Of a stretch of 64,000 nt of DNA, positions 4,197 to 64,000 are shown piece by piece. The notes under the pieces were generated by a model that saw only the letters and a list, made by a program, of their open reading frames with translations, was not told the DNA's origin and searched no databases. This stretch comes from a virus. Its lineage: Duplodnaviria; Heunggongvirae; Uroviricota; Caudoviricetes. The DNA lies in the IMG/VR virus record IMGVR_UViG_3300042691_036629, positions 53,500 to 117,499 of that record; one strand, written 5' to 3'. The translations under genes and the position numbers were made by a program. How positions within the stretch are numbered: the first letter of the stretch is position 1; every line of letters begins with the position of its first letter.

Positions 4197-4706
4197 ATGA
4201 AATGGATTAAAAGATTTGAGAGCTTTGATATGCCTTACTACAATAGTGAATGGGAAAAGTATTTACCAAATGAAATAACTATTATAAAAGGTCAAGATGA
4301 TTTTACACAAAGAAAAGTATATAAAACGGGAAACATAATGATTCATTCAGATATGGTTCAAATAACTTATACACATGAAGAATATCCAATGGATACGAAA
4401 GATGTTGTTCCTGAAGTAGTTGATTTTGATATACACTTTGTTAAAAATGGAAGCATATCTTTAGATGTTGATATTACTTATGGTGACTCAATGGCTAGTG
4501 AGTTTAAGATAAAGGGTGATAAAGTTCATGTTATACAATATACTTCTTATGGTTCTAAATTTGATCCATCAAATACAGTTTTTGCTTTAGATGAAAATAG
4601 TTTAATGAGTTTTATTAAATTCTTTAATATGTTTGAGGGAATCGATGTTGATAGAAATGAATTTAATTTTTTAGACGATAATCCCAATAATTATACACCA
4701 GATTAA
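4197..4706 (+). CDS. hypothetical protein, MKxIKxFE N-terminal family (start corrected from 4122)
   Basis: The track ORF starts at 4122 inside the terminator hairpin. An internal ATG at 4197 gives MKWIKRFESF..., preceded by TATATACAAAT. Confidence 0.5.
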   Translation: MKWIKRFESFDMPYYNSEWEKYLPNEITIIKGQDDFTQRKVYKTGNIMIHSDMVQITYTHEEYPMDTKDVVPEVVDFDIHFVKNGSISLDVDITYGDSMASEFKIKGDKVHVIQYTSYGSKFDPSNTVFALDENSLMSFIKFFNMFEGIDVDRNEFNFLDDNPNNYTPD

Positions 4707-4742
4707 TTTTTATTTGTATATTTACATAAATAAAAATTCACT

Positions 4743-4892
4743 ATGGGAACTTTAGCACTTATAATAATCTTCATTTTATTATTTAGAATTTTGAGACCTG
4801 TTTTCTCATTAGCTCTTTCCATTTTAATGCCTTTCATTAAAATAGTATTAATAGCAATTTTAATATTTGTTGCTTTTATTTATCTTTTTTAA
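4743..4892 (+). CDS. possible small membrane protein (49 aa)
   Basis: MGTLALIIIFILLFRILRPVFSLALSILMPFIKIVLIAILIFVAFIYLF is entirely hydrophobic. Below the track cut-off. Confidence 0.3.
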   Translation: MGTLALIIIFILLFRILRPVFSLALSILMPFIKIVLIAILIFVAFIYLF

Positions 4893-5136
4893 AGGGACAG
4901 TGGCGACAACCAGTGTTACAACAAACTGGTCTTATTATCTTTAAGTATTCCTCGGTGAATACTCTCATTTTTATTCCATCTATTTCTTCCCAATAGAAGT
5001 CAACATCTTCTATAAGTTCGTCTGCTCTTAATCTTTTATTCTGACACATAATTTATATATTTTTTAATAAAAATTAGTTTTTAGAAAAATATTTTTAATA
5101 TATACTAAAAAATAGATTAAAAAATACATTATAATT

Positions 5137-6813
5137 ATGAAGTGGATAAAATCAAGAAAAAATTTCCTAAACGAAGCTAAGATTGGTGATGTTATCTTAC
5201 CATCTCAAAAGAAAGAAGTTATCAGAACTTTTGGTGAGAAGTGGTTAGACATGGAAGAAATTACAGCTACTGAGAAAATTATTCAAGGTGATTGGGAATT
5301 ATCTAAAGAAGATAAATTTAAAGTTCTAAACGTTCTTTTTGGATGTGACGTTGAAGAAGCTCAAAAACAATATGCTGATTTACCAGATGAGTTTATAGCT
5401 GCGGTTAATGAGTCTTTATCATTCTTAGAAACTGCTGATGATACAAGAGATGTTAATATCAAAAGAGCTAAAGAATCTTTGTCTGAATTAGATCTTAAAG
5501 ATATTGGTATTGATGAGATGATTGCTCTTAACTACCCAGTTTTAAGAAAGTTATCTAACGAAACTAACAAAGCTGAAATCATTCAAAGAGATGAAACAGG
5601 ACGTCCTGTTATGGGTGCCGATGGAAGACCAGTTAAAATTCAAGTTGAACCAGGTCCTGTATTTGAAAAAAACTTAATCAACTTAGAATCTTTCAGACAA
5701 GATTATAACAAATATTATGATAAAAAAGTTGAAGCTAACTTTAATGATAGAAATATTCAAGCTATTATAAACGTTGTTAAACAGGACCATAATAGTGAGT
5801 ACAAAACATCATATAAAGTATTTAATAGACCAGTTCATTTAAAAATATCACACAACCCAAAAGATATTTTAAATATGTCTATTTCAAAATTCTACGCATC
5901 TTGTCAACATTTATACTCAGGAGGTTATAGAAGTCAACTTATTGGAAACGTTTTTGATCCACATTCAATTCCAGCTTTCTTAATTGTTAAAACTCCTATT
6001 TATAATGGTGATGATTTACTTTCTGAGCAATTACCAATTGCTAGAAGTATGGTTAGATGGTTAGATGGATATGATAAGAATGAGAAAGGTGCTATCTTCT
6101 TTGATAGAACTTACCCTGATAGATTAAGAGAAGTTATGTATGAAATGCTAACTAAATATACTGGAATGGAACCTATCGGAACTCAAGCTAAATCAAATGG
6201 ATTGAAATATACTTTCTCTCCTGATATACCTGCTCAAGCACAAGGTGATATTAGAGATCCTTATATGGATTCATTAGGATTAAACAGAAAGAAATATGTT
6301 GGTATCAACACAACAAGATTAACTACATCAATGAGTGGATTTGATAAAATGATCATTTCTCCACAAGCTAAAGTTAAAGAGTTAATCGTTGATTCACCAT
6401 CTGTACCTGAAGCATTATTCTCATTACCATTGAAATTAGATTGGATTAAATTTAAGTTTATCAATATCAAAGAAATGCCAGATACAAGTAAGTTTGATTG
6501 TAAATCATTTGCTTTTGATAAATGTAAATTTTCTAGTGAAGATATTCAAAAAGTTATTGCTGATCACAAAGATATGAATAAATTACAATTAACATCTTGT
6601 GAAGTTGATGACTTAAAATTAAGTGGTTTAAATGTTGAAGAATTACAATTAGTTTATACTACAACTGATTCATTAGCTAGTGTTTTAGACGGAGCTACTT
6701 TCAAAAAATTAGTTGTTTCTGGTGATTTAATGTCAGATAAAGCAAATAAAGAATACATCAATAACTTAAAAAGAGGTGGTGTTAAAATTGAAACTGTTGG
6801 TTTAGTACTATGA
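5137..6813 (+). CDS. large hypothetical protein with MKxIKxxxxFxxE N-terminus and a divergent SCM-core domain
   Basis: 558 aa. N-terminus MKWIKSRKNFLNE. Internal ASCQH...PAFLIV...ARSMVRW...IFFDRTY...DPYMDSL aligns with the GTLGxSCM/GRALxW/FMDRVY/YPYLDTL paralogs. Confidence 0.55.
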   Translation: MKWIKSRKNFLNEAKIGDVILPSQKKEVIRTFGEKWLDMEEITATEKIIQGDWELSKEDKFKVLNVLFGCDVEEAQKQYADLPDEFIAAVNESLSFLETADDTRDVNIKRAKESLSELDLKDIGIDEMIALNYPVLRKLSNETNKAEIIQRDETGRPVMGADGRPVKIQVEPGPVFEKNLINLESFRQDYNKYYDKKVEANFNDRNIQAIINVVKQDHNSEYKTSYKVFNRPVHLKISHNPKDILNMSISKFYASCQHLYSGGYRSQLIGNVFDPHSIPAFLIVKTPIYNGDDLLSEQLPIARSMVRWLDGYDKNEKGAIFFDRTYPDRLREVMYEMLTKYTGMEPIGTQAKSNGLKYTFSPDIPAQAQGDIRDPYMDSLGLNRKKYVGINTTRLTTSMSGFDKMIISPQAKVKELIVDSPSVPEALFSLPLKLDWIKFKFINIKEMPDTSKFDCKSFAFDKCKFSSEDIQKVIADHKDMNKLQLTSCEVDDLKLSGLNVEELQLVYTTTDSLASVLDGATFKKLVVSGDLMSDKANKEYINNLKRGGVKIETVGLVL

Positions 6814-8717
6814 GAAATTTAAAACATATAAAATTATTTGAAAGTTTTTCTTTATTAGAAGCATTTGCTTCAACTAGTCTTAATAAAGTTTTTAACTATA
6901 TTAAAACAAAAGAGAGTAAAGAAAAGTTTTCTAACTATGTTAGAGCAATTGCGGGACAGATTGATGTCCCGTCAACTGCTATTACAGATGAATACTTTGA
7001 ATACCTACCGTATAAAGATGCTATTAGAAAGAATGTTTCTATGGATCTTGTTGATTGTAAAGCAACTTCTATTCAAGCTTTTGGAGATCCAACAAAAAGA
7101 GGTGGTAAAGGTGTACCAGGTGATGTTTGTACCAAGGGTAAATTAAAAAAGGCTTATGGTGCTTCAGGTAGAACAAGAGAGTATGATTGTCCTATTTGTA
7201 ATGGTACTGGTAAAGTAAGTCCTAGTGGTCAATTAAAATATCTTAAATTCTGGTTAAACTCAAAAGGTGATTTTATTGGTGTTACAGCTGTTGATGGTTT
7301 ATACCATGCTAATAAGAGAGATGTAAATCAATTTAAACAAATTGATATAACTGAAGAAGTTAAAGCTGTTTTAAATAGAGAAGGTAGAAATGATGCAACT
7401 GTTAAAGCGGATTTAGAAGCTATCGAATCTAAATATGGTTTAGAATCGGGTAAAACTAGATTAGCTACAGAAGGTTTAACAAATTATAGATGGAGAGATC
7501 CAAGTGGAATAACAATAGGAACTTATTGGAAAGACAGAGATGGTAAGGTTTATATAGCTTCTGGTAATAGTCGTTTAGATGATAAAAGACAAAGACCGGT
7601 TGGTGTTAAGTGGAAAGAGTTTGGAAGTTATTTAGCTCAATTACCTTATATTTTTAATGCTGTTACTGCGAATATTGATAGAGGAATTATAAAAATATTA
7701 ACTGATATTGAAGAAAAAGATGATGTTCTTTATAATGTTGGTGTAAACTTCACATATCCTAAAAGTGGTGGTGGAAGTTTCTCTTTGCAAGATAGTTTAG
7801 ATAAATCATTTTTAAGTGAGGCTGAGTTTGCTATTATATTTGATTTCAAGAAGTTTGAGGATGATATGATTGCTAATAATACAAAAAAACTTTCAACTAT
7901 CAAAGATGAAAGAACTGAAAGAAAAAAGGGTATTATTGGAGGTAAATTAGGTATCTCTGATAAAGATATTAGAAATGCTAATTTAGAAAGATATATAAAA
8001 GCTATTTCTGATGTTGATATAACAACTGGTTTTGATAGATTAGTTAAGAAACTACCTAGATTCTTTGGTGGTAGATTATCATTCTTTTATATTTATAGTG
8101 AGAAAAACTTTATTTCATATAGAAATACTATATTGAATTTATTACAATTCATGAGAGCTGAAGATGATGATGAGAAAAAAAATATTTCAGATAAAATATC
8201 TGATCGAATAAAAGAAACTTTTAATAACAATAAAATACACTCTGAGAGATTAGATAGAAGATTGGCATCATATAAAGATATTTTAGCTGATAGATCTGTT
8301 ACATCAGAAAATGATAATGAAAAAATTTTCTATAAATCTCAATTAGATATCTTAAATAAAATTATGCAGTTGAGTGCTAAAATATCTAATAAAATATCAC
8401 AACAGGAAGTTGAGTGTATTGAAGACTTTGAAATTATATACACTAAGATAAATGGTATATATAACGCACTCAAATCTGATAGAACGGGACTATTTAAGGG
8501 TAGTGGAGGACTTCAATATGTAGGTAGTGGAGGACTTCAATATGTAGATTATTTAATTGATTATGATGATGTAAATAGAACAATTAGGTCATTTGAATCT
8601 TATTATGGAAGACCAACACCTACACCGACTGATTTAGGTTCAACTAATTTTAATAGATATGTTGAAGATACTTTAAATAAGTTAGATTATATGATACGAT
8701 TAGTAGAAAGAATATAA
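6810..8717 (+). CDS. large hypothetical protein, MKxLKxFE N-terminal family, with Zn-ribbon-like CPICNGTGK
   Basis: 635 aa. Start MRNLKHIKLFESF overlaps the upstream stop (ATGA). Contains a 24-bp tandem duplication. Confidence 0.55.
   Translation: MRNLKHIKLFESFSLLEAFASTSLNKVFNYIKTKESKEKFSNYVRAIAGQIDVPSTAITDEYFEYLPYKDAIRKNVSMDLVDCKATSIQAFGDPTKRGGKGVPGDVCTKGKLKKAYGASGRTREYDCPICNGTGKVSPSGQLKYLKFWLNSKGDFIGVTAVDGLYHANKRDVNQFKQIDITEEVKAVLNREGRNDATVKADLEAIESKYGLESGKTRLATEGLTNYRWRDPSGITIGTYWKDRDGKVYIASGNSRLDDKRQRPVGVKWKEFGSYLAQLPYIFNAVTANIDRGIIKILTDIEEKDDVLYNVGVNFTYPKSGGGSFSLQDSLDKSFLSEAEFAIIFDFKKFEDDMIANNTKKLSTIKDERTERKKGIIGGKLGISDKDIRNANLERYIKAISDVDITTGFDRLVKKLPRFFGGRLSFFYIYSEKNFISYRNTILNLLQFMRAEDDDEKKNISDKISDRIKETFNNNKIHSERLDRRLASYKDILADRSVTSENDNEKIFYKSQLDILNKIMQLSAKISNKISQQEVECIEDFEIIYTKINGIYNALKSDRTGLFKGSGGLQYVGSGGLQYVDYLIDYDDVNRTIRSFESYYGRPTPTPTDLGSTNFNRYVEDTLNKLDYMIRLVERI
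8499..8546 (+). repeat. perfect 24-bp tandem duplication (GSGGLQYV x2) inside CDS
   Basis: GGTAGTGGAGGACTTCAATATGTA occurs twice in tandem. Confidence 0.8.
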
Positions 8718-9581: not shown

Positions 9582-10733
9582 TTATTTAAATCTTCTGATA
9601 AAATTTCTAACTCTTGGTGAATATCCAGTTGCAATTCCATAGTTACCACTTGCTGATTGTAATCCAAGACCATTTTTACCACTATAATTTAAGAGTTTAC
9701 CAGCTTTAACGTCATAAAAACTAAATGTATCAAGATAAGGGAAAGCACCATAATATATTTTCTTGACGTTGACTTCCATTTCAACATCATATTTATTACC
9801 TTTATACTCAATGTATTCCTGAGATCCTAATCCTTGATTTAATCTGGTTGCCATCCCATTTTCTTTTGCCCATTTAGTCATACTATATACCATCCAATCT
9901 TCAGTTGAATAAACTCGGTCTAAAAACTTTATCTTACCTTTCAAATCAGTTAAATTCTCTTTGATATCAAAGGCTAATCTAATTTCGGCATCCCAGATAA
10001 AAGCTCTTGCGACTAATTTATTAGAACTATCTAACATAACTAATAAACTACATACTTCTGGATTTTTTGTATAAATATCAAATAGATTATTAGTTCCTTT
10101 AAAACCATATGTGGTGGAAGATCCAAAACGTGTTATGTCTGTTCGATCTGATCTACCCTGTTGTTTATCATTCATACAAGAATTACCCAAAGTTCCCTTC
10201 ATTCGAGCATAGTTAAAAGAATCATAATATTTAGCTATTTCATTACCTTTAACAACTTTAAATTTATACTCTTCTTTAGCACCAGATTGTGATTGTAAAT
10301 AAACTACAAACTTATCAATTAAAGATTCTGGGTATTTTTTAGGAGTGTTTATAACTTTATTTAAAAATCTACCAATTTTAATTCTCGATCTTGTTTTAGA
10401 GTCCAATAAATCAGGTGATATCTCCCTCATTTTACTAGTTGGTATCCAAATTAAATTATCGCTTTTTAAACCATCGATAAACTCAGGGTATTCTTTATTA
10501 ACATTTTTCTGAGTTGTATATGAAAGATTTTTATCTTCTAGATCAACAAATGTTATATCATCATCAATTTCTTCACCATATAAGTCAAGTAAGTCTCTAC
10601 ATATATTAGAAAATTCAGATGGTGCTTTACTAATAGCTTTGTGAAAATTAGTTAGAAAGTAAAATCTGGTTTCATTTAAGAACTCCAATTCGTTTTGACT
10701 TTCAAAAACTTTAAAAGATTTTATATGTTTCAT
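9582..10733 (-). CDS. SCM-core paralog family protein with MKHIKSFKVFE N-terminus
   Basis: 383 aa. Contains GTLGNSCMND...LVARAFIW...FLDRVYS...FPYLDTF. TATATA-like box AATATATAGAAT sits just 5' of the ATG. Confidence 0.55.
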   Translation of the reverse strand: MKHIKSFKVFESQNELEFLNETRFYFLTNFHKAISKAPSEFSNICRDLLDLYGEEIDDDITFVDLEDKNLSYTTQKNVNKEYPEFIDGLKSDNLIWIPTSKMREISPDLLDSKTRSRIKIGRFLNKVINTPKKYPESLIDKFVVYLQSQSGAKEEYKFKVVKGNEIAKYYDSFNYARMKGTLGNSCMNDKQQGRSDRTDITRFGSSTTYGFKGTNNLFDIYTKNPEVCSLLVMLDSSNKLVARAFIWDAEIRLAFDIKENLTDLKGKIKFLDRVYSTEDWMVYSMTKWAKENGMATRLNQGLGSQEYIEYKGNKYDVEMEVNVKKIYYGAFPYLDTFSFYDVKAGKLLNYSGKNGLGLQSASGNYGIATGYSPRVRNFIRRFK

Positions 10734-10858
10734 ATTCTATATATTAAAGATTAAATCTCACTTTTTAATGACCAAAATAATTATTTTCAAAATAATTAAA
10801 TAAAATAACAAAGGGAGAGATAATTATTATATATATAATTAAAAATAAAAATAATTAT

Positions 10859-11906: not shown

Positions 11907-12518
11907 ATGTTAAAAATTAAAACTTATAACCAATTTAATTCGAGTGATTGGTTTGGACCTGTTAAGGTTCTAGATATAAAAGATCGTAAAGTTTATACAA
12001 CTTCTGGAAATTTTGTAAATAATTCTATAAATCAAATAAAGAAAGGTTATACATATGTTTTTAGATTGAATGGTGATATGATAGTTGATACGGGTATGTC
12101 TTGTGTCGATTTAGTTATTTTAGTTGATACTGGCTCAAATTATAAGATGTTGGCAATTCTAAGAAATAAAGATCCATTTAAAGGCAAGTGGGCTTGTCCT
12201 GGTGGGAACATTGACGAAGGTGAAGAACCAATAGATGCTGCTATTCGTGAGTTGGAAGAAGAAACAAGTTTAAAAGTACCTAAAAGATATTTGAGATTTA
12301 TTGATGTATTCAATGAACCGTGGAGAGATCCAAGAAATAAGAATTGTATTTCTTATGCTTTCTCAGTTATTTTAAGTGATATACCTGAAACATCCGCGGC
12401 TGATGATGCTGATGAATGTGATTGGATTGATGTTAGTTATAGTGGTGAAACTATTGTTGATATGGCATTTGATCATAAATCTGTTATAAAAGGTGCTATT
12501 AAAAGAATTAAAAGATAA
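11907..12518 (+). CDS. Nudix hydrolase
   Basis: Nudix box GGNIDEGEEPIDAAIRELEEETSL (Gx5Ex7REuxEExGu). Confidence 0.8.
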   Translation: MLKIKTYNQFNSSDWFGPVKVLDIKDRKVYTTSGNFVNNSINQIKKGYTYVFRLNGDMIVDTGMSCVDLVILVDTGSNYKMLAILRNKDPFKGKWACPGGNIDEGEEPIDAAIRELEEETSLKVPKRYLRFIDVFNEPWRDPRNKNCISYAFSVILSDIPETSAADDADECDWIDVSYSGETIVDMAFDHKSVIKGAIKRIKR

Positions 12519-12536: not shown

Positions 12537-13658
12537 ATGAGAAAGTATAACCAATTTATTTTAGAAAAATTAAATAATGATTTAGTCATCTTATTAGAGG
12601 GGTATTTATATTCGACATCCGAATTTCATAGAAAGATTTCCGAATTATCTAGACAATCTGGTAGAGTGGGTGATATTTCTAAAATCATTGATGAATTCTT
12701 AAATAGAAAAGCAGATCCATTTCATCAATTAAAAGATGATTCAATAACTCAAAACTTTTTTGATACTACCAATCGAGTTGATATGGTTAGTTTCACTATG
12801 AATGATAAAGTTCCTAAAGATTGGGATAATGATGAAGATCCAGATTTGCCATACACATTAGGGAGATCTGAAATGAAAATTGGTAGAGTTTTGAGATCTA
12901 TTGTGTCTATGATACAAAGTTCAAAATCTATTAATTTTAATTTAACCGATAAAGATGTTGAAGACTTTGTGAACGCATATAAATCATTAGAAATAAATGA
13001 TAAATGGCAGTTTAAAATTGTTAAAGGTGATGATATTATCAAATATTATAACACATCTAATTACTTAAACACTAATGGGACTTTAGGAGGATCTTGTATG
13101 GGTGATGCTAGGGGTAAATTAAAACTATATGTGGAGAATGATAATAAAGTTGGTCTTTTAATTCTACACAATAAAGAAACTGATCAAATTTGTGGTCGAG
13201 CTTTAGTTTGGAAACTAAAAAAGTCACCTTGTGATGCTAAATATTTTATGGATAGAGTTTATGTAAATAATGATTCTGATGTTATAAAGTTTAAAAATTT
13301 TGCTAATGAGAATAAATTTTTATATAAACAGAAAATGAATAGTCATACGGAAACAAATGTTTGTTTTTTATATGATAATAAGGAATTTTTTGGCGAAATA
13401 TCTGTCAAATTAGAAAAATCAAACTTCAATAAATATCCATTCATTGATACACTTTGTTTCTTAAAAGGTAAAAAGTTATCAAACTTACCATCTAAGAATT
13501 GTAATTGGTTACATGAAACGGATGGTGGTGATGATCAATGTTATGAATGTGATGGTGAATGTTTCTCAAGTTACAATGGAATCTGTGATGTTTGTGGAGA
13601 TGGTCACATCTTTTTGAAAAGAAAAGGAATTGAAACTAAAATAAATAGATTAGTATGA
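12537..13658 (+). CDS. SCM-core paralog family protein with C-terminal Cys-rich Zn-ribbon
   Basis: 373 aa. Contains GTLGGSCMGD...VGLLILH...GRALVW...FMDRVYV...YPFIDTL, then CYECDGECF...CDVCGDGH. Confidence 0.55.
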   Translation: MRKYNQFILEKLNNDLVILLEGYLYSTSEFHRKISELSRQSGRVGDISKIIDEFLNRKADPFHQLKDDSITQNFFDTTNRVDMVSFTMNDKVPKDWDNDEDPDLPYTLGRSEMKIGRVLRSIVSMIQSSKSINFNLTDKDVEDFVNAYKSLEINDKWQFKIVKGDDIIKYYNTSNYLNTNGTLGGSCMGDARGKLKLYVENDNKVGLLILHNKETDQICGRALVWKLKKSPCDAKYFMDRVYVNNDSDVIKFKNFANENKFLYKQKMNSHTETNVCFLYDNKEFFGEISVKLEKSNFNKYPFIDTLCFLKGKKLSNLPSKNCNWLHETDGGDDQCYECDGECFSSYNGICDVCGDGHIFLKRKGIETKINRLV

Positions 13659-15676
13659 GATATATAAAAGAATTTTTCAATTACATAAAAGAAGAATGGT
13701 CAAAGAATGAACCAATTCCAGAAATATTAGATAAAGAAAAAGGATTAGCTGTTTTCCTAATCGGTGCTCCCGGTATTGGAAAGTGCTTAGAATATAATAC
13801 ACCCATTTTAGTGAATAATAAAATGACTAAAATTGGTAAATTGATAGATAACTATAACACCGAATCAAAAATTGGTGAAATAAATATTCCTGTTAAAAAC
13901 TTATATGTTAAATCATTAAATGATAGTGGTGAGTTTGTGGAAAATGAGATTTCGAGTTTATATAGAGGCTATTCAGAAAAGTTAATAAATATAAAAACAC
14001 AAACGGGTGTTGATATAAAAGTTACACCTATACACCCATTATTAGTTTTAGAAAAAAACGGTGATATTATTTGGAAAAAATCATCAGAAATAACAATAGA
14101 TGATAAGTTAGCCAGACCTAGAATAATAAATAACACTTTTAATAATAAATCAAAAATAAGTAATGAATTATCAAGGATTATTGGTTATTCGTTAAGTGAT
14201 GGTAATTTTATAAAAAATAAAAATAGTAAATTTCTAACACTAACAAATATAGATATTGATATAATAGATGATTTTAGAAAATGTGTCGAAAAAGAAAATA
14301 AAATATTAACAGTAAAATCTAAAAAAATAAGACATAGTGTTCAATATTCAGATGATATTAAATTAGGAAATCGAAGATTTAAAAAAGATAAATATGATTT
14401 TATTTCAAATATTTCTGAAATATGTGGTGATTATATTTTTGGCAACAAATCACATAAAGTTAGAATTCCGGATGATATAATATCAAACAGTGAATCATTA
14501 AAACATTTCTTAGGTAGTTATTTATCTTGTGATGGTTCTGTATTTGAAAATAGAGTTGAATATTACACATCGTCATATGAAATGGCTACTGATTTATCTT
14601 ATGCACTTTTAATGTTTAATTTATTATTATAAATTAATTCCACCATGTCATCATTTGGTATAAATCCACCAATATTTGTATTAGTTTTTTCAATTGGTTT
14701 AATTTTTTTTCTACTACATCTAATATATTTATTTAATATTTCTCCAAATAAATTAAAATCATCACTTGTTACCCTGACTATATATGATAAAAAATCCTTA
14801 TTATTTAAATTTGTTTTTTTATTTTTTATTACCGAATTTATACCAGAAGATGAAACTGGATATAGATTTACTAGAAGTTATAAATATAGAAGAGTAATAA
14901 CGAAAAAACGTTTTAATAAAATATGTAATTTTTTAAATGAGAATAATGTTTATATACCAGAAACATATATTAATCATCACAATAACTTATTTTTTGATAA
15001 AATAACTAATATATCAACAATAGAACATAATGATTATGTTTATGATATAGTCTTAGATAAACATCATAACTTCATAGGTGGTAACTTACCAACAATACTA
15101 CATAATTCACACTTTGTGAATAATTATTTACATACAAAAAATACAAACATTAAAGACTTCTCAACTGATGATATTTCACTTCTTTACACAAAAGATCCAA
15201 ATGTTTATTATAAAGGAAAAGAAAAAGAAGAAGGTGGTAGAACAAAAAATGCGTCTGAATTAAACTTAATGAAGATGAAAGGTTTTATGAAAACTGGTCA
15301 AAACTTTATCTATGATACAACCGGTGCTGGTAAAGAATATACTGATACTGGTTATGAACACATTAAGGATATATTTGATTTAGCAAGAGAGAATGGATAT
15401 GAAATAGTTTTTATTCACTTATTATCTACATTAGAAACATCAATTGAACAAGATAAATTAAGATCGAGACACGTTGATCCACACTATATTAAATGGGCTT
15501 ATGCCAAACAAATGGGTGGTGAAGTGGATGGTGTTAAGGTAACTGGTAATATGAAAAGATATAAGGAATTAGGACCAGATAAATATTATGTTATAACTTC
15601 TATTGATAAAAAATATAAGTTTTATAAATTAGAAGGAGATAAACTTCTTAAAAGAAAAAATGATAAATGGGTTTAA
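13655..15676 (+). pseudogene. P-loop NTPase gene carrying a LAGLIDADG intein, interrupted by in-frame TAA at 14630-14632
   Basis: N-extein ends LIGAPGIGK and C-extein begins SHFVNNYLH, so the spliced Walker A is GAPGIGKS. The two track ORFs (13655..14632 and 14645..15676) are in the same frame, separated by a single ochre codon. Confidence 0.5.
13784..15106 (+). mobile_element. intein (Hint plus LAGLIDADG endonuclease domain) in Walker A motif
   Basis: Starts CLEYNTPIL and ends VYDIVLDKHHNFIGGNLPTILHN before Ser. Two LAGLIDADG-like blocks: IIGYSLSDGNF and LGSYLSCDGSV. Confidence 0.7.
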
Positions 15677-21149: not shown

Positions 21150-22865
21150 ATGAGTAATATTTTAAGATATGATAGTTTCCTAAACGAGAGTAAACTCAAT
21201 TTACTACTTGAAGGTAATATGGTTTATAAAGATGATTTCAAAGAAATTTTGAAGTCGGTTAATAGTCCACTTTCAAAAGAGATTTTAGATTTAGAGGGTG
21301 TTGACGTTGATGTTGATACAAACTTTATTGATATTTCTGATGATAAAGACAACTTTATACAATTTAAATCCGATAAAAAGTCTAAAAACTCTTGTGTTAT
21401 AATTGATTTTGGCGCATCATTGTCTATCTTATCAAAAGAAATATTTACATCATTTGCTAAATTATTTGAAGATCCAAGAGTCGAAAAAGGTTTTTTGAAT
21501 TGGTATGAATTACTTCAAAGAAACCAAAAAGCTACTATTACTAAACAGATAACAAGTATTGATGATTTTAATGATGAGGATGTAAAAAATAGATTAAAAT
21601 GGTATCTTGATCAAGGACGTAAAATTTATCATATAAGATTTAATAGAAGTGGTGAGAATATTGATCTTATCATTGAAGATTATGGTCTTAAAATTGGTGA
21701 GGGAGCGGTTTCCTCACAAGAAGTTAGAGTTGGATCATTCGTTCAATCACTATTGAAGAAAGCTGGTAAAGAAGTTAAAGGAACTGAAGTTGAAGATTTT
21801 GTAACTAAGTTTTCAATTGCCACTAAAGCTAAAAAAGAAAATATATTCTCTGATTTTGAATTGGTTGAAGGTGATGATATTAAAAAGTTTTATTATGAAG
21901 GTAATTATTATCGAGGTGGTAATCATACTTTAGGAGCATCTTGTATGAGACATGCTAGATGTCAAGACTACTTAAACATATATTCTAAAAATCCTAAAAG
22001 TGTTGGATTAGTTATATTAAAATCTAAAGAAGATCCAACTAAAATTATAGGTAGAGCTCTTCTTTGGAAAAAACCAGAATATATGCCATGGGATGGTGGT
22101 GATGATGAAGGAGTAATAACGAAATATAATTTAGTAAAACATACCGAATCAGAAGGAAAACCATTTATGGATAGAATTTATGTGAGTAATTCACCAGACC
22201 AAGAATTGTTTATTAAATACGCAATTAAAATGGGATATGTTTATAAGAAAAATCAAAATATTTCAGAGGAAGAGTTTATGTTTAATGGTTCTGATTCAAA
22301 CATCGGAACAATTAAAGTTGATTTAGAAATGAACGGCTTTAGTAAATACCCTTATTTAGATACTCTTTGTTATTATGAATGGGATTATGGATTCTTAACA
22401 AATGAGCAAAAATTAGTAATAAATAGTAACTATTACGAACTAAGAGAAACTGATGGTGGTAATGGAGAAGAATGTGAAAGATGTGGTGGTGATGAAAGAA
22501 TTGATTGCTATGAATGTGAGGGTGATGGAAGATATGATTGTGAAGAATGTGGTGCCTCTGGTGAAGTAGAATGTTCTAATTGTGATGGACACGGTACTCT
22601 ACCTTGTGATAACTGCGAAGGAACTGGAAAAGAAGACTGTTCTAGTTGTGATGGAACTGGAGAAGATGATGAGGGAAATGAGTGTTCTTATTGTAGTGGA
22701 TCAGGTAAACAAGATTGTTCTGAATGTGAGGGTGACTGTACTAACGAATGTGATAGATGTGGTGGTGATGGTACCAGAGAGTGTGGTGATTGTGATGGTG
22801 AAGGTAGAATTTGGTGTAATCGATGTGATGGTGATGGTAGAATTGATTGTCCAGATTGTACATAA
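21150..22865 (+). CDS. SCM-core paralog family protein with C-terminal DnaJ-like CxxCxGxG zinc-finger array
   Basis: 571 aa. N-terminus MSNILRYDSFLNE. Contains HTLGASCMRH...VGLVILK...GRALLW...FMDRIYV...YPYLDTL, then about nine CxxCxGxG repeats. Confidence 0.55.
   Translation: MSNILRYDSFLNESKLNLLLEGNMVYKDDFKEILKSVNSPLSKEILDLEGVDVDVDTNFIDISDDKDNFIQFKSDKKSKNSCVIIDFGASLSILSKEIFTSFAKLFEDPRVEKGFLNWYELLQRNQKATITKQITSIDDFNDEDVKNRLKWYLDQGRKIYHIRFNRSGENIDLIIEDYGLKIGEGAVSSQEVRVGSFVQSLLKKAGKEVKGTEVEDFVTKFSIATKAKKENIFSDFELVEGDDIKKFYYEGNYYRGGNHTLGASCMRHARCQDYLNIYSKNPKSVGLVILKSKEDPTKIIGRALLWKKPEYMPWDGGDDEGVITKYNLVKHTESEGKPFMDRIYVSNSPDQELFIKYAIKMGYVYKKNQNISEEEFMFNGSDSNIGTIKVDLEMNGFSKYPYLDTLCYYEWDYGFLTNEQKLVINSNYYELRETDGGNGEECERCGGDERIDCYECEGDGRYDCEECGASGEVECSNCDGHGTLPCDNCEGTGKEDCSSCDGTGEDDEGNECSYCSGSGKQDCSECEGDCTNECDRCGGDGTRECGDCDGEGRIWCNRCDGDGRIDCPDCT
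22465..22860 (+). repeat. coding tandem array of about 9 Cys-rich CxxC(x)GxG units
   Basis: Repeated TGTGA(A/T)GGTGATGG...TGT units. The antisense ORF at 22701..22889 is an artefact of this repeat. Confidence 0.7.
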
Positions 22866-22880: not shown

Positions 22881-23264
22881 ATGAAACACTTAAAAAAGTT
22901 TAATGAGAATATTGAAGATGATAGTTTTGACTACGACTATGTAAAATTATGCTTTATTGATTTAATAGAGTCTGATAAAATCAAATATATTGATGATGAA
23001 GATTTTGTTTTAATAGAGTTTGAAAAGTTACCAGAGCCAAAAGTAGATTATCGAAATAATTGGGATGGATCACCTCTTATGAAAATTGAAGATTATATAA
23101 AAGATCTCCAAATTACAAAAGATATAATGAATGATATAAATAGTGGTATTAAAAAAGTAAAAGATGAATATCCAAATTACGAATGTGTAATAACATATGA
23201 TGATGGTATGGAATATGGAGAACTTATTAGAAATCCACAAATAAAAGTATCTATATTTGAATAA
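22881..23264 (+). CDS. hypothetical protein, MKHLKKFNE N-terminal family
   Basis: 127-aa acidic ORF. Confidence 0.45.
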   Translation: MKHLKKFNENIEDDSFDYDYVKLCFIDLIESDKIKYIDDEDFVLIEFEKLPEPKVDYRNNWDGSPLMKIEDYIKDLQITKDIMNDINSGIKKVKDEYPNYECVITYDDGMEYGELIRNPQIKVSIFE

Positions 23265-38897: not shown

Positions 38898-39105
38898 ACC
38901 TTTTCCATAAAATAATTTTTTGATATAATTATATCTTTTCTTTGTGGTGGTCTCCAACCTTCAACCTTAATAAAACTCTCATCAAAAGAATATATCCAAT
39001 TGACTTAACATCTTCATAAATATCACAAACCTTTTGTATATCAATATCTTCTTTCTTGAAGTAAGCTTCGTATAACTTTAAGTATCTCATTCATTATATA
39101 TTAAA

Positions 39106-40495: not shown

Positions 40496-40927
40496 ATGAA
40501 ATATCTAAAACTATTTGAAAAATTCACTATTGAAGAACTCATTGAAAATAATAAAAAGGCTAATGAAATACTAGAAGATATTAAAAGTATATCATATATC
40601 ATAGAAGATGAGGGATTTGATATTCAATATACCTTTCAATTCAGTAAAGATTGGAAACAATCATTTATAAATGTTGATGATTATAACACATCAAGAGATG
40701 CTGGTAGAGCTAGAAAAAAGATAAATGGAATTTCTTTAGTTATTCACAAAAATTCGATTGAGACATCTAAAAAAACTAGACTTGATTTTTCACCTTCTGA
40801 TAATGAAATACTTAATAATTTTATTGTTCTTCTGAAAGAACACTTAGATTATATAGATGGAAAATCTATTCTAAGTGGGCGCGGTAATTTTAATAATTCA
40901 ATGAGTATTTTAATTCAATTTGGTTAA
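40496..40927 (+). CDS. hypothetical protein, MKYLKLFEKF N-terminal family
   Basis: 143 aa, with TAATATATAC just 5' of the ATG. Confidence 0.5.
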   Translation: MKYLKLFEKFTIEELIENNKKANEILEDIKSISYIIEDEGFDIQYTFQFSKDWKQSFINVDDYNTSRDAGRARKKINGISLVIHKNSIETSKKTRLDFSPSDNEILNNFIVLLKEHLDYIDGKSILSGRGNFNNSMSILIQFG

Positions 40928-44768: not shown

Positions 44769-44830
44769 CTTTGTAAATTATTTTAGTTTATATATTAAAA
44801 AGAAAACCTAAATATATCTGTGACCGTTAG
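44694..44830. repeat. direct repeat unit copy 1 (5' coding end plus upstream region)
   Basis: ACTCTCACTAACATCAGATATATTCAAGTTTTCTT...TATATATTAAAAAGAAAACCTAAATATATCTG...CGTTAG, repeated at 45001-45140. Confidence 0.7.
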
Positions 44831-45075
44831 TGAGAATAGACTGGAATACATTTATCCATATCTATATCATCTAAAACTTGAATGTCACCTCTTTCTGCTT
44901 CTAAATCTTGTAGTGTAAAATATCCACCTTGTAGTTCTATATTGAGAATTCTGTATATTTTACCATTATATTCACATCTATCTGGAATCATATTCCATCT
45001 ACTCTCACTAACATCAGATATATTCAAGTTTTCTTCTGACTCGTTAAATCTTTTAAGGTGTGTTAATTTATTCAT
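44827..45075 (-). CDS. hypothetical protein sharing N-terminus with the integrase gene
   Basis: MNKLTHLKRFNESEENLNISDVSESR. Compare the integrase N-terminus MKGKNNIQSFEEFKENLNISDVSESK. Confidence 0.45.
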   Translation of the reverse strand: MNKLTHLKRFNESEENLNISDVSESRWNMIPDRCEYNGKIYRILNIELQGGYFTLQDLEAERGDIQVLDDIDMDKCIPVYSH

Positions 45076-56128: not shown

Positions 56129-56483
56129 TTTAATCTAAGTCTTTTGATATTCTTTTGAGTACTATGAATATTAGAATTATGACGGTAATAACCAGTGGAA
56201 CTACTGATAAAATGATATGCCATGGTTGTACTCCTTCTTTCATGATTATTTACAATTAGGGAAGTTTTGGTGTATATGTGATAATACGACCATTGTACAA
56301 ATGATGGTGAATATCATACTAATTACTAATGAGGTAAATGGAGACAATTTCATAATTCTATTTTTAGTTTATATAAAGATATGAATTTTTTTAGAATAAA
56401 CAAAGTTAATATATACTTTATGAAGATAAGAAAATTTAATGAATCTATCCATCTGAATCATTTAATAAATAATATATAGAAAT

Positions 56484-57056
56484 ATGAAATACTTAAAATT
56501 ATTTGAAAACTTCGATGGAGAAGATCCTAAATGGATTGTAACATCTGCTTTAGATCCAATAGAGGTTGATGAGGTTACCTTTGATGAGAAGTACGGAGAT
56601 ACATCTATGTTTCGTTTATTTGAATTTAGTGAAGAACCTAGTGAAGATAAAATAAACCATTTAAAATCATGGATAGAAGAGGAAGGATATTACTCTCATA
56701 AAACAAGTAAAGGAATTATAGTTACTGATAAACCAATAGAGAATGTATGTATTGATTGGTTAAATAAAAACTTTTCTGATATGGAAAAAGTTGAGAGTAA
56801 GGATCACCCTGGATGTGTTCTTTATAGGTATAATCCAGGTGACAATATAATTTTTTATGATAAAAGTAGAGATAGACGAATTTACGTAAGCACTTCAATC
56901 TGGTCGTTTTTTGAGAGATATGGTTTTTTATTGAATATATACAAGAAGGAGGCGTGGGAATGGAGTAAAGAAACCATCATGAATAATTGGTTAAATATTG
57001 ATGGTAAATTAGTAGTATTATTAAATAAAGGTTCACTTCTTCAAGTATGTGTATAA
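56484..57056 (+). CDS. hypothetical protein, MKYLKLFENF N-terminal family
   Basis: 190 aa with AATATATAG just 5' of the ATG. Confidence 0.5.
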   Translation: MKYLKLFENFDGEDPKWIVTSALDPIEVDEVTFDEKYGDTSMFRLFEFSEEPSEDKINHLKSWIEEEGYYSHKTSKGIIVTDKPIENVCIDWLNKNFSDMEKVESKDHPGCVLYRYNPGDNIIFYDKSRDRRIYVSTSIWSFFERYGFLLNIYKKEAWEWSKETIMNNWLNIDGKLVVLLNKGSLLQVCV

Positions 57057-62752: not shown

Positions 62753-62833
62753 CTCTTTTCGTTTTTAATTTATACTACAAATATAAAAAAAATAAAAATT
62801 ACTTTTTAATATATAAAGAAAATAAAAATTATT

Positions 62834-63130
62834 ATGAAGAATATTAAAACATTTGAAAATTATGGACGTGATAGAGGAACATATCAAGAAAATGAAAGAC
62901 GTTCAGATAGAACTAAAGAGTTAGACAATTTTTTAAGAAAGAAAAATGTAATCAATGATGATAAAACATCCGAAATTATCGAAAGATTTAAAGCTGAGTT
63001 TGGTAATAGAGATTTTTCAACTCAAGAGTTTGCTGAGTTCTATCATGTATTAAGAACTGAAGGTTTTGATGGTATTCAGATTTTTAATGCTTTAGGTAAT
63101 ATGATACCAGAAAATAATGATGAAGAATAA
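62834..63130 (+). CDS. hypothetical protein, MKNIKTFENY N-terminal family
   Basis: 98-aa ORF with TAATATATAAAG upstream. Confidence 0.45.
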   Translation: MKNIKTFENYGRDRGTYQENERRSDRTKELDNFLRKKNVINDDKTSEIIERFKAEFGNRDFSTQEFAEFYHVLRTEGFDGIQIFNALGNMIPENNDEE

Positions 63131-63669
63131 TGAGATATTTACAAACATATGAGTCACTATCAAATGATAGTTTAGTTTCTTTAGTAAAAGAACTTAATAA
63201 TATAAAACCAGATGCTATTATCTATTCATCACCAGGAAGGTTTACATTTAACCACCCAAGCGTTAAATTGATTAAATTGAATTTTGAAGAAGGTGATTTA
63301 GTTAGTACATCAAAGTCTAGTTTTGATAATTCAAATGATAAAGGTGCTCATTTATTGAGTATGGGAAATTCAATTGAATACCTTTATAAAAATGATCCAG
63401 ATTATATTAAAACTAAGAATATAAAAAAATTAAACTTACCAATCTATGTAGTTTTAGATAAGGTTGATAAAAAGAAGTTATTTGAAATTGCTAATAAAAT
63501 AACTGATAGTGGTTATTCGGTTACTTATTATATGTTTACATATAGTGAACAAGATTGGTTAAAACCTGAAAACTTCTCTGTAAATTCACTTAGATATTCA
63601 AAGAAAATTTCAGAAAGTGAAATAGTGGGACTTAAACATGATTTTAAGTTTGTTATAGAGTTTAAATAA
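63130..63669 (+). CDS. hypothetical protein, MRYLQTYESL N-terminal family
   Basis: 179 aa. Its start overlaps the upstream stop (ATGA). Confidence 0.45.
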   Translation: MRYLQTYESLSNDSLVSLVKELNNIKPDAIIYSSPGRFTFNHPSVKLIKLNFEEGDLVSTSKSSFDNSNDKGAHLLSMGNSIEYLYKNDPDYIKTKNIKKLNLPIYVVLDKVDKKKLFEIANKITDSGYSVTYYMFTYSEQDWLKPENFSVNSLRYSKKISESEIVGLKHDFKFVIEFK

Positions 63670-63699
63670 TTTATTATTATATTTAAAAAAATAAATGAA

Positions 63700-64000
63700 A
63701 TGAAAAAATTAAAAACATTTGAAGGTTTTTTTGACTTCTTCGAAAAAAGTGATGAACAAAAGTTAAAGTCCGCTAAAAATAAAGTGATTGGACTTTGTAA
63801 TTTATATTTAATTGGTGATAGCTCTATTGGTAAAAGGTTTAGAGTTAATGATGATTTATCTGTTGATGTTTATTGTCATGTTGATTTATCTGGTTTAAAG
63901 CTAACTAAGTTACCGGTTAAGTTTAATAAAGTCAATGGTGATTTCAATTGTAGTAACAATCAATTAACATCCTTAGAAGGTGCTCCAAAAGAAATTAATG
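63700..64000 (+). CDS. hypothetical LRR-like protein, MKKLKTFEGF N-terminal family (3' end beyond window)
   Basis: The first ATG at 63695 hits TGA after two codons. ATG at 63700 opens a frame to the window end. GDFNCSNNQLTSLEGAP resembles bacterial LPX-type leucine-rich repeats. Confidence 0.45.
   Translation, partial: MKKLKTFEGFFDFFEKSDEQKLKSAKNKVIGLCNLYLIGDSSIGKRFRVNDDLSVDVYCHVDLSGLKLTKLPVKFNKVNGDFNCSNNQLTSLEGAPKEIN

Follow-up and report, generated by a model that had tools for sequence, protein, structure and literature searches.

An N-terminal tag shared by unrelated proteins of Bacteroidota megaphages and its possible role in capsid targeting

About one in ten genes (∼8–10 per cent) of an uncultured Bacteroidota jumbo/megaphage of 28 per cent GC begin with the same peptide of roughly ten residues, M-[KR]-[YH]-[IL]-[KR]-x-[FY]-E-[ENS]-[FY], which sits at residue 1 and is followed by an acidic/polar stretch. 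The DNA analysed here (the window) is a stretch of 64,000 nucleotides, and among complete genomes the nearest is LR745206 (635 kb). The tag occurs in a single phage lineage, does not extend beyond viral sequence and is maintained by strong purifying selection. By analogy with T4, it may be this lineage's counterpart of the capsid targeting sequence and load proteins into the phage head, a reading to which we give about even odds (probability roughly 0.5). It is the best explanation because the lineage has T4-type head genes, because tagged genes lie within the head module, and because a late-promoter-like box precedes many of them.

All 16 N-termini listed in the initial annotation read in the DNA as written there, and the motif that they were said to share is real. 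The strict core ^M[KR].[LI]K.[FY] begins 10 of 130 greedily called window genes, where internal positions predict 0.02 and sites behind an internal K/R predict 0.30 (binomial P ≤ 6e-13), and none of 140 non-gene ORFs in the window. By a leave-one-out PSSM, 11 of the 130 genes reach 10 bits against 0.016 expected (Table 1). A further four to five window genes have a tag that is weaker or offset by a few residues (the weak or offset copies being 6810, 63130, 45075(-), 44768(-) and the remnant ORF at 56420–56479), and a second type of N-terminus, M-x-K-Y-N-Q-F-I/L-x-E, with Y4 and F7, is seen in three (12537, 21150 and 11907); 12537, 21150 and 10733(-) are mutual paralogues. The F-x-E ending ascribed to the motif is limited to the FNE and FKE variants, because the glutamate usually adjoins the phenylalanine (F7-E8). 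At a threshold of 8 bits the PSSM recovers 13 of 171 genes in LR745206, none of 90 in T4 and none of 53 in Tenacibaculum phage PTm1.

Table 1. Window genes and ORFs with the tag or a related N-terminus. In the text each is named by its start position, with (-) for the minus strand. Bits are PSSM scores; boxes are copies of the late-promoter-like box, with their distance upstream of the ATG; a slash marks a putative cleavage position.
Coordinates	Strand	Length	N-terminus	Bits	Box	Remarks
4197..4706	+	169 aa	MKWIKRFESFD	11.1	4185–4191 (ATATATA), 5 nt	Tagged; box follows terminator-like hairpin 3' of HU gene
5137..6813	+	558 aa	MKWIKSRKNFLNE/A	12.8	5098–5104, 32 nt	Tagged, R at position 7; L-N-E site at residues 11–13; L128 orthologue begins MKWIKTRKQFLIEA; weak match to phrog_21231 (virion structural protein), E = 0.004
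6810..8717	+	635 aa	MRN-LKHIKLFESF	6.5 (unshifted)	none, because start overlaps preceding stop	Tag offset by 3 residues; L128 orthologue has canonical start MKYLKLFEAFES
9582..10733	-	383 aa	MKHIKSFKVFES	12.5	10738–10744, 4 nt	Tagged, K-V-F-E-S variant
11907..12518	+		MLKIKTYNQFNSS	5.3	4 nt	NUDIX hydrolase, tag weak/atypical; domain at residues 73–177 (2e-17) behind 70-aa N-terminal extension
12537..13658	+	373 aa	MRKYNQFILEK		4 nt	Second N-terminus type; conserved core gene of the lineage
13655..15676	+		MRYIKEFFNYIKEE	12.4		Tagged, P-loop kinase-like; intein after GAPGIGK; frame broken by TAA 14630–14632 within degraded LAGLIDADG domain
21150..22865	+	571 aa	MSNILRYDSFLNE/S		4 nt	12537 paralogue; weak tag match
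22881..23264	+	127 aa	MKHLKKFNENIED	10.0	none	Tagged; second in operon
33663..34295	+	210 aa	MKYLKSFKESIAG	13.9	33652–33658, 4 nt	Tagged; single + strand gene amid - strand genes
38929..39090	-	53 aa	MRYLKLYEAYF	11.5	39095–39101, 4 nt	Tagged; terminator-like hairpin upstream of box; first 36 aa similar to those of 40496; absent from initial list
40496..40927	+	143 aa	MKYLKLFEKF	16.5	40485–40491, 4 nt	Tagged; lone + strand gene
44043..44768	-	241 aa	MKGKNNIQSFEEFKEN		21 nt	Chimeric ORF: residues 1–77 of a separate 122-aa offset-tag ORF plus C-terminal half of tyrosine integrase
44827..45075	-	82 aa	MNKLTHLKRFNESEEN		21 nt	Offset tag; residues 1–26 common to 44768(-)
56420..56479	+	19 codons	MKIRKFNESIH		56409–56415	Remnant directly upstream of 56484; probably stump of lost tandem paralogue
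56484..57056	+	190 aa	MKYLKLFENF	21.2	56472–56478, 5 nt	Tagged, consensus copy; lone + strand gene
62834..63130	+	98 aa	MKNIKTFENY	13.4	62809–62815, 18 nt	First of three consecutive tagged genes
63130..63669	+	179 aa	MRYLQTYESL	7.5		Weakly tagged
63700..64000	+		MKKLKTFEGFF	14.5		Tagged, LRR-like; cut by window end (182 aa in sister contigs)

The proteins behind the tag are unrelated, as first described. MKYLKLFE starts 71 non-redundant IMG/VR proteins that otherwise share nothing (mean column identity 6 per cent), and tagged proteins form no fewer than 160 unrelated clusters, whose median length is 147 aa, on contigs of 20–36 per cent GC. Back-translated, this octapeptide occurs in more than 119 stretches of IMG/VR and at least 598 of metagenomes, and 19 times across 596 Gb of genomes from bacteria and archaea, where a rough estimate of chance is ∼10. 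The tagged proteins comprise fast-evolving small orphans together with ankyrin, LRR, SET, kinase and hydrolase proteins; Pfam identifies a zeta-toxin/AAA_33-type kinase and a pterin-4a-carbinolamine dehydratase among the tagged enzymes, and others appear isochorismatase-like from a reading of their N-terminal sequence. The initial annotation had regarded the motif on clearly non-structural enzymes as an argument against packaging, and some tagged proteins do look like ordinary enzymes, although the NUDIX gene is only weakly tagged. The tagged ‘truncated recombinase’ is instead a strain-specific deletion fusion (44768(-)); sister strains have a 122-aa ORF and a separate 266-aa integrase that starts MKKTNYYEIC.

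Within the 56484 family the tag is virtually unchanged among 24 homologues that are 38–64 per cent identical overall, and it is the most conserved segment of the orthologues. It is predicted to lie unpacked, outside the fold: residues 1–9 and 1–25 fall below a pLDDT of about 50 in two AlphaFold models (pTM 0.76 and 0.79), and in that of 56484 residues 1–9 stay under 50 while the body reaches 83–93. The tag has no hydrophobic stretch, which rules out a signal peptide or membrane anchor.

The tag carriers are T4-related Bacteroidota jumbo/megaphages. Their lineage encodes a gp23-type major capsid protein, a gp20 portal, a gp55-like late sigma factor, a gp25-like baseplate wedge and a prohead protease of gp21 type that is joined to a scaffold of 14-residue repeats; tblastn with T4 proteins matched gp17, gp18, gp20, gp21 and gp23, and among the neighbours of tagged genes Pfam found Gp23 in four and Portal_T4 in three. 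A single region of LR745206 (L161) holds the portal, the major capsid protein, a 707-aa gp21-like protease-scaffold (phrog_207, 4e-30), the gp55-like sigma factor (phrog_234), a gp4-like protein, a gp44-like clamp loader and the gp25-like wedge with a box ahead of it. An MKYLKLFEQF gene lies between portal and protease in four loci (L085, L101, L089 and L045), and in L085 and L101 the protease is followed by an MKYVKLFEQF gene, which the longer L085 sequence places between protease and major capsid protein. These slots are held in T4 by gp67/gp68/gp22. The contig (L098) with the tagged 4197 orthologue (1185–1670(-), 42 per cent identical, start MKYLKLFEGF) also encodes portal, protease-scaffold and capsid. 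On the contig that carries the window, a search for T4-type head genes found none. In Lak-B1 and LR756500, which also have a gp23-type capsid, 42-kb samples round the capsid gene are almost tag-free, and the tag is therefore not obligatory for a gp23-type head. The gene at 1063–1815, at first put forward as a ClpP-like prohead protease, is a genuine ClpP family member (Pfam, 181 bits), but the prohead protease of the lineage is likely the gp21-type protein.

The specificity of that protease looks T4-like, judging by the scaffold repeats, which read ...YSEY[LI]AE/NLDK, and by the capsid propeptide, SINE/NA or KLYE/DA. A site of the form (L/I)xE ends at residues 8–14 in 41 per cent of tagged proteins against 15 per cent of the untagged (P = 7e-13), most often at E8 and E13. 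The remaining 59 per cent of tagged proteins lack such a site nearby, so that the description of the tag as a cleavable propeptide holds at best for a subset. At P3 of the putative E8 site, L is present in only ∼26 per cent of tags, and T, K, S and R are common.

Under capsid targeting, tagged proteins would be made late, many from the TTTAATATATA box, presumably read by the gp55-like sigma factor. The short amphipathic tag would attach them to the scaffolding core of the prohead during its assembly, here the gp21-type protease fused to its 14-residue-repeat scaffold, and the gp23-type shell would enclose them as it forms. The protease would then trim the tag where an (L/I)xE site follows, and the cargo would enter the next host together with the DNA. 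We infer scaffold binding, packaging, cleavage and injection from the lineage and the gene context, and from a tag that is portable, virus-confined, conserved and predicted to be unpacked. Against them, a cargo drawn from 8–17 per cent of genes would be very large, and some tagged proteins resemble ordinary cytoplasmic enzymes. Wobble bias and a frequent leaderless-type arrangement also suggest a component at the level of the mRNA.

Such a component raises the question of whether the tag is mainly an mRNA feature. In that case its first ∼30 coding nucleotides would aid initiation or the first steps of elongation on late transcripts that are leaderless or have a very short leader, and the peptide would be a by-product. 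The TTTAATATATA box stands 4–6 nt before the ATG in 12 window genes and 153 genes of IMG/VR loci, and at 3–6 nt it is enriched in tagged genes with an odds ratio of 4–22; if the box has the spacing of the T4 late promoter from its transcription start, transcription would start at the AUG or right beside it. The phage has its own IF3 (15780–16313). Across 160 unrelated families Y3 is TAC in 37 per cent of tags against 13 per cent in gene bodies (P = 2e-9), K2/K5 are AAA in 92 against 81 per cent and F10 is TTC in 34 against 20 per cent, and in the 56484 orthologues TAC and AAC are invariant while the remaining synonymous sites look saturated. Codon differences between copies had been offered as an argument for selection on the peptide; the ten window copies do fit genome codon usage, but the reasoning is only partly valid because the wobble bias is position-specific. 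Even so, a primarily nucleotide-level role seems improbable. The TAC excess is in part common to N-termini in general (27 per cent in untagged ones), each tag position has both synonymous codons common, with I/L written TTA, CTA, CTT, ATT or ATA, and the wobble states of Y3 and N9 are unlinked. Variation conserves the amino acid rather than the nucleotide (Y/H/W/F at 3, F/Y at 7 and 10). In IMG/VR loci 160 of 211 tagged genes lack a proximal box, and of the 129 genes that have one, 78 are untagged, among them those for the baseplate wedge and GIY-YIG proteins; tagged genes also occur in operons whose stop and start codons overlap (6810, 13655 and 63130), and the motif occurs in cellular genomes roughly at chance.

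Conservation, portability and an unpacked state would suit any trans-acting peptide, and the tag could instead be an address to a destination other than the capsid, such as a chaperone or protease of the phage (its own ClpP, with the tag as a degron timing lifetime), a replication or assembly compartment, or the membrane. The ClpP gene is real, several tagged proteins are enzymes useful in the cytoplasm, and under half have a T4-type cleavage site; yet nothing links the tag to ClpP or to any compartment, whereas tagged genes lie between portal, protease and capsid genes and are enriched behind the late-promoter box, and we consider such an address unlikely. Far less plausible still is a tag of little function, carried along in a module of promoter plus first codons. 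Duplication and recombination, illegitimate or homologous, would spread this module and give new genes a common start, as at the hyperplastic internal-protein loci of T-even phages. Tandem tagged paralogues occur at 62834–64000 and, at the locus corresponding to 56420, in L012 and L014, where the window has what is probably a 19-codon stump with its own box; 39090/40496 and 44768/45075 are alike only in their first 26–36 residues, and a natural deletion has fused a tagged N-terminus to an integrase. Against passive spread, the tag is the best-kept part of the diverged 56484 family, whose conservation suggests a dN/dS well below 1 in the tag, and it persists in all those unrelated clusters across the full range of GC. 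Its synonymous states are unlinked, and most tagged genes have no box.

By score the tag does not qualify as a T4 capsid targeting sequence, and the T4 peptides MKTYQEFIAE and MELITELFDE are too unlike it to count as homologous. What they have in common with it is M1, K2, F7 and an amphipathic style of aromatic residues plus acid. The second N-terminus type is also comparable with T4: the 12537 protein begins MRKYNQFILEK, and its Y4 and F7, invariant among 30 aligned homologues, are placed as in MKTYQEFIAE.

The tag, an N-terminal peptide of roughly ten residues with the form M-[KR]-[YH]-[IL]-[KR]-x-[FY]-E-[ENS]-[FY], is greatly over-represented among the genes of the window. All sixteen N-termini listed in the initial annotation are present as written, and a strict core pattern (^M[KR].[LI]K.[FY]) is matched by 10 of the 130 called genes against 0.02–0.30 expected (P <= 6e-13), with no match among 140 non-gene ORFs. 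A leave-one-out position matrix places 11 window genes at or above 10 bits where 0.016 would be expected, among them one for a protein of 53 aa that was absent from the earlier list. Weaker or shifted versions begin genes 6810, 63130, 45075(-) and 44768(-) (window genes are named by start coordinate); judged by its orthologue on the syntenic IMG/VR contig L128, which begins with the canonical MKYLKLFEAFES, 6810 is a true member carrying three extra residues. A second type of N-terminus, M-x-K-Y-N-Q-F-(I/L)-x-E, is found on genes 12537, 21150 and 11907.

Downstream of the tag the proteins are unrelated, as had been claimed, except for the mutual paralogues 10733, 12537 and 21150 and two pairs that are alike over their first 26–36 residues only; at least 12 unrelated families are distinguished among the window carriers by all-against-all BLASTP. 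Two other details of the original description do not hold. The ending F-x-E is incorrect, the glutamate normally standing directly after the phenylalanine (F7-E8), and the supposed tagged 'truncated recombinase' is a deletion chimera, in which residues 1–77 of a tagged ORF have been joined to the C-terminal half of a tyrosine integrase by a strain-level deletion. The deletion shows in a comparison with L004, L006 and L007, since sister strains keep both genes intact: an integrase of 266 aa with the N-terminus MKKTNYYEIC, and a distinct 122-aa ORF that bears the tag. Pfam and PHROGs searches with the tagged window proteins returned almost nothing beyond NUDIX, intein and integrase matches, and no IMG/VR relatives were found with the 10733 protein or with an alignment of the 56484 family. 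The fold of the 12537 family gave a weak GNAT-like match that does not indicate a function.

Two tagged genes of the window have peculiarities of their own. The P-loop kinase-like gene 13655 contains an intein directly after its Walker A motif (GAPGIGK↓C), with a degraded LAGLIDADG homing-endonuclease part, and because this part is interrupted by an in-frame TAA, this strain may lack an active copy of the host gene. Stop-codon recoding was considered for this split gene and rejected, since the stop is TAA and the window reads at a coding density of 0.89 in the standard genetic code with ordinary stop usage (95 TAA, 22 TGA and 11 TAG). Directly upstream of 56484 lies a 19-codon ORF (MKIRKFNESIH...) with its own promoter box, probably what is left of a tandem paralogue that was deleted, given that two full copies are present in L012 and L014.

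Outside the window the tag has a restricted but populous distribution. Searching related phage genomes with the N-terminal matrix, as had been proposed, proved productive in LR745206 (13 of 171 genes at 8 bits or more in 142 kb); the matrix found 0 of 53 genes in the first 50 kb of the Tenacibaculum phage PTm1, a jumbo phage with an AT-rich genome and a Bacteroidota host, and 0 of 90 genes at 8 bits or more in 56 kb of T4. When IMG/VR, metagenomes, and bacterial and archaeal genomes were scanned with back-translated MKYLKLFE, there were more than 119 stretches among the IMG/VR matches listed and at least 598 in the metagenome collection, against 19 in 596 Gb of bacterial and archaeal genomes, which by rough estimate is near chance; the tag is thus essentially absent from cellular genomes. 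In the first 80 IMG/VR loci (GC 0.20–0.36, with one exception at 0.45), 88 of 91 MKYLKLFE matches begin an ORF of at least 50 codons. When all loci were pooled, the tagged genes numbered 253 and fell into 160 clusters (median length 147 aa), and 71 non-redundant tagged proteins have nothing beyond the tag in common. Most of these 71 are orphans; Pfam recognized ankyrin repeats (4), a BspA-type LRR, a SET domain, a zeta-toxin/AAA_33 kinase, a pterin-4a-carbinolamine dehydratase and a few others.

A logo built from 144 N-termini outside the search pattern's selection reads M, K/R, Y/H, I/L, K/R, x (L/T/K/S/R), F/Y, E, E/N/S, F/Y, followed by an acid-rich stretch (D+E at residues 11–25, 20.5% in tagged proteins versus 13.8% in controls). 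Tested as a secretory or lipoprotein signal, the tag was found to lack a hydrophobic core of about ten or more residues, its Lys and Glu alternating with aromatics. No description of the tag was found in the searchable literature, including a paper on the aquatic 'moraphages', apparently members of the phage group to which the tag carriers belong, and searches on tag strings and on links between the capsid targeting sequence (CTS) of T4 and megaphages gave no match.

The window itself, at 26–31% GC, had no match and no near-identical phage among GenBank phages by megablast with 12 kb of its sequence. It encodes a ClpP-family protein that shares 80% identity with one in LR745206 (634,780 bp) and about 41–44% with those of other 0.54–0.64-Mb phages, including the Prevotella Lak phages. 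Other products are HU, IF3, a type IX secretion sorting-domain protein, PurN, NAMPT, PRPP synthetase, PARG, GIY-YIG and HNH endonucleases and an integrase, and genes identical to those of the window lie on contigs from freshwater metagenomes, the longest of 172 kb. From the ClpP relatives, the gene content and these identical genes it is concluded that the window is part of a Bacteroidota jumbo/megaphage.

Several features of this phage deserve mention in their own right. NAMPT, PRPP synthetase, a NUDIX hydrolase and a microbial-type PARG make up an NAD-/ADP-ribose-related set that may be an NAD-salvage or counter-defence module, and tagged isochorismatase-like proteins (identified by eye from sequence) occur on related contigs. 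A 574-aa protein has a signal-peptide-like N-terminus and a C-terminal Por_Secre_tail domain, which suggests export through the secretion system of the Bacteroidota host. Upstream of many small minus-strand genes, about 10–25 nt from the start, TAnnTTTG-type motifs (e.g. tatatttgt, ctttataaa) can be picked out by eye; as they resemble the Bacteroidota -7 promoter element, early transcription by the host polymerase is probable for these arrays.

Features of the window and of related loci (positions in the window unless a record is named)
Feature	Position	Strand	Remark
ClpP-like gene	1063-1815		full ClpP family
NAD-/ADP-ribose-related set	23351-24931 (-), 26850-27623 (-), 11907-12518 (+), 40924-41640 (-)		
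P-loop kinase-like gene with intein	13655-15676	+	in-frame TAA at 14630-14632
IF3 gene	15780-16313	-	Pfam IF3_N and IF3_C
Type IX sorting-domain protein	17064-18788	-	
Additional tagged protein	38929-39090	-	
Region of the deletion chimera	44043-45075	-	
19-codon ORF	56420-56479	+	
Boxes (ATATATA core)	4185, 10744(-), 11896, 12526, 21139, 33652, 39101(-), 40485, 56409, 56472		also 5060(-), 21071(-), 28419(-)
TAnnTTTG-type motifs, examples	24931, 35660, 50031, 50936, 55344, 60981	-	
TAnnTTTG-type motif, example	36541	+	
L161	LR745206 180,764-222,413		portal, 707-aa protease protein, capsid protein (these three at about 193.1-202.4 kb of the record); gp4-like head-completion protein, gp44-like clamp loader, gp55-like sigma factor, gp25-like wedge
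Protease and repeat-scaffold fusion	L161 17783-19906		LR745206 ~198,546-200,669
Protease and repeat-scaffold fusion	L085 2001-3977		
Protease and repeat-scaffold fusion	L045 1938-3872		
Protease and repeat-scaffold fusion	L098 9405-11591		

The lineage has T4-type head genes. Pfam matches among 120 randomly chosen neighbours of tagged genes include Gp23 (4), Portal_T4 (3) and glutamine synthetase (3), and tblastn with T4 proteins found gp17 in at least 10 loci, gp20 in 9 and gp21 in 4 (L045, L085, L089 and L101, E ~2e-8), as well as gp23 and gp18. Giant eukaryotic viruses, suspected as the source of the IMG/VR contigs from ankyrin, SET, LRR and DUF5824 matches, were rejected on the strength of the Gp23 and Portal_T4 neighbours and the tblastn matches to gp17, gp20 and gp21. 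For the L085 capsid protein, which is gp23-type, the nearest counterpart is that of LR756500 (50% identity), followed by Lak phages (42%), PTm1 (36%) and LR745206 (32%). The 707-aa LR745206 protein has an N-terminal gp21-type protease domain (phrog_207 at 4e-30; Pfam Peptidase_S77 weak, E = 0.005) and is 38% identical to the L085 protein matched directly by T4 gp21. Its scaffold-like C-terminal part contains about 12 tandem 14-residue repeats (NIxYSEY[LI]AENLDK) and then a very acidic stretch. Every repeat holds an (L/I)-A-E site similar to the I-A-E of T4, and about 45 residues into the capsid proteins stands a conserved SINE↓NA or KLYE↓DA, which together suggest that the T4-like (L/I)xE specificity of the protease has been kept. 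With a separate gp21-type enzyme present, the window's ClpP-like protein, a full member of the ClpP family once put forward as the prohead protease, is an unlikely candidate for that role.

Tagged genes lie inside this head module. A gene beginning MKYLKLFEQF is placed between portal and protease in L085, L101, L089 and L045, and one beginning MKYVKLFEQF follows the protease in L085 and L101, standing between protease and capsid gene in the longer sequence of L085. These are the positions of gp67/gp68 and gp22 in T4, an equivalence drawn from gene position; PHROGs and Pfam assigned the tagged head-module proteins to no informative family. No head genes were found within 10 kb beyond either end of the window; protease and scaffold are known from relatives, among them L098, a contig with T4-type head genes that encodes a tagged orthologue of the window's 4197 protein at 42% identity.

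The proposal of a cleavable propeptide could at best hold for part of the family. A canonical (L/I)xE ends at residues 8–14 in 41% of tagged versus 15% of untagged proteins (P = 7e-13), with peaks at E8 (25%) and E13 (10%), and within residues 8–30 the figures are 58% and 32%; the other 59% have no such site at residues 8–14, and trimming is therefore plausible in a subset only. Common P3 residues before E8 among 144 tags are L (37 tags), T (33), K (21), S (13) and R (12), with Gly and Ala rare, and the phiKZ-type (S/A/G)-x-E motif was not matched at the boundary of these tags.

There is reason to think that selection acts mainly on the amino acids of the tag. Synonymous codon choice in the window copies matches genome usage, and replacements conserve the peptide, not the DNA, with Y/H/W/F at position 3, F/Y at positions 7 and 10, and I/L at position 4 through TTA, CTA, CTT, ATT or ATA. 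The decapeptide is nearly invariant and the best-conserved segment in the 56484 family (24 homologues, 38–64% identity), and Y4 and F7 are invariant in all 30 aligned homologues of the 12537 family. AlphaFold models predict confident bodies for both (pTM 0.76 and 0.79, respectively), with pLDDT below about 50 for residues 1–9 in the former and 1–25 in the latter; a segment so conserved yet outside the predicted fold suggests that it acts on a partner. A modest effect of the 5' coding region appears to be added. Among 56484 orthologues (L011–L020), whose other synonymous sites look saturated, the codons of Y3 and N9 do not vary, being the minor codons TAC and AAC, and where residues are identical the codons agree at a rate of 0.80 in the tag versus 0.60–0.67 elsewhere in the gene. 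With each cluster counted once, TAC encodes Y3 in 37% of tags versus 13% in gene bodies (P = 2e-9), AAA at K2/K5 reaches 92% versus 81% and TTC at F10 34% versus 20%; TAC is also raised in untagged N-termini (27%), and the wobble states of Y3 and N9 are not linked.

Many of these genes are preceded by a promoter-like box, TTTAATATATA, that ends 4–6 nt upstream of the ATG in 12 window, 26 LR745206 and 153 IMG/VR-locus genes; a second class lies about 18–25 nt upstream. In the window, 14 of 50 ATATATA heptamers have an ATG at +3 to +6 versus 3.7 expected, and terminator-like hairpins precede the box at 4197 and 39090. Boxes also stand before untagged genes, for example the GIY-YIG genes 21059(-) and 28408(-) and the gp25-like baseplate wedge of LR745206, a phage that encodes a gp55-like late sigma factor. 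The box may be this lineage's equivalent of the late promoter of T4 (TATAAATA); with the spacing of T4 late promoters, the 4–6-nt class would give leaderless or nearly leaderless late mRNAs. The window's IF3 gene is of interest beside such genes, as IF3 in E. coli is reported to select against leaderless mRNAs.

It might be asked whether the tag is mainly an mRNA-level initiation signal of leaderless late transcripts. Its association with the proximal box (odds ratio 4–22) and the mild wobble bias point that way, but tag and box also occur apart: of 211 tagged genes in the IMG/VR loci, 160 (76%) have no proximal box, 78 of 129 proximal-box genes have no tag, and the amino-acid replacements are conservative, so that this account is improbable. 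A promoter-plus-start module that spreads by recombination and itself does little is more improbable still, to the point of being remote. The reading preferred here, to which a probability of about 0.5 is given, is that the tag is a lineage-specific capsid (prohead-core) targeting signal, T4-like in function and possibly descended from that of T4, with an unusually large and varied cargo. Counted against it are the ordinary-looking enzymes among tagged proteins, the third to a half of tagged proteins that have no cleavage site, the lack of head genes on the window's contig, and the near absence of the tag from 42-kb samples of both Lak-B1 and LR756500. That the tag is a docking peptide for some other machinery is unlikely, less so than the mRNA-level account.

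If the tag does target the prohead core, a wider and more tentative proposal follows, a possibility short of even odds: a large T4-related clade of Bacteroidota jumbo/megaphages (among them LR745206-like phages and probably the 'moraphages') would load more than 100 unrelated tagged proteins into the capsid for delivery to the next host. The cargo would comprise ankyrin, LRR, SET-domain, kinase and hydrolase proteins and many small orphans. Were this true, the injected arsenal could be read from genome sequence alone, even for phages that nobody can culture; giant phages would possess, in protein packaging, a modular means of delivery on a large scale whose cargo likely serves anti-defence and host takeover, and the tag would offer a compact handle for loading foreign proteins into the capsids of Bacteroidota phages. 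Even with another role, a near-invariant decapeptide on at least 160 unrelated families is a strong and easily testable lead.

Short peptides with a task comparable to the one proposed for the tag are found in cellular compartments. The cargo-loading peptides of encapsulins and the encapsulation peptides of microcompartments are short and amphipathic, are joined by a flexible linker to unrelated cargo enzymes and dock inside the shell, which in encapsulins has the HK97 fold; encapsulin peptides are mostly C-terminal with another consensus, and the systems are cellular, without scaffold or protease. Among phages, we know of short-peptide capsid targeting shown experimentally for only a handful of T4 proteins. 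The propeptides of phiKZ-like phages are long and share no one decapeptide, their cleavage motif is (S/A/G)-x-E, and to our knowledge no common N-terminal tag has been described in these giant phages. PhiKZ and SPN3US do package dozens of proteins, including paralogue families and enzymes, and their gp21-type protease cuts after Glu (PMC5694885, PMC7411985).

The closest known system is the CTS of T4 IPI, IPII, IPIII and Alt (Mullaney and Black 1996; reviews PMC9026906, PMC3012670). In the IPIII peptide residues 4 and 7 are reported to be important in targeting and residues 8 and 10 in processing, and in T4 targeting persists with an uncleavable peptide (PMC9026906). Like the tag, the CTS is an N-terminal peptide of about 10 residues with an MK start, an aromatic or hydrophobic residue near positions 3–4 and 7 and an acidic residue at 8–10, and is borne by otherwise unrelated, fast-evolving proteins; some tag copies end in (L/I)xE, and the tag-carrying phages have the gp21-type protease, scaffold core, gp23-type shell and gp55-type late transcription of T4. 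The peptides themselves (NC_000866: MKTYQEFIAE in IPII and IPIII, MELITELFDE in Alt) have M1, K2, F7 and an aromatic-plus-acid amphipathic style in common with the tag, but cannot be aligned with MKYLKxFExF as one motif, the tag having its Glu at 8 and a variable P3; the 12537-family N-terminus (M-R-K-Y-N-Q-F-I-L-E) is closer, matching at Y4, F7, I8 and E10. Unlike T4, the tag phages have Bacteroidota hosts and many genes with leaderless-type starts, and their tag is known from sequence alone. The difference in scale is the largest, for T4 has about four CTS proteins, whereas in this lineage 8–17% of genes, in at least 160 families, are tagged.
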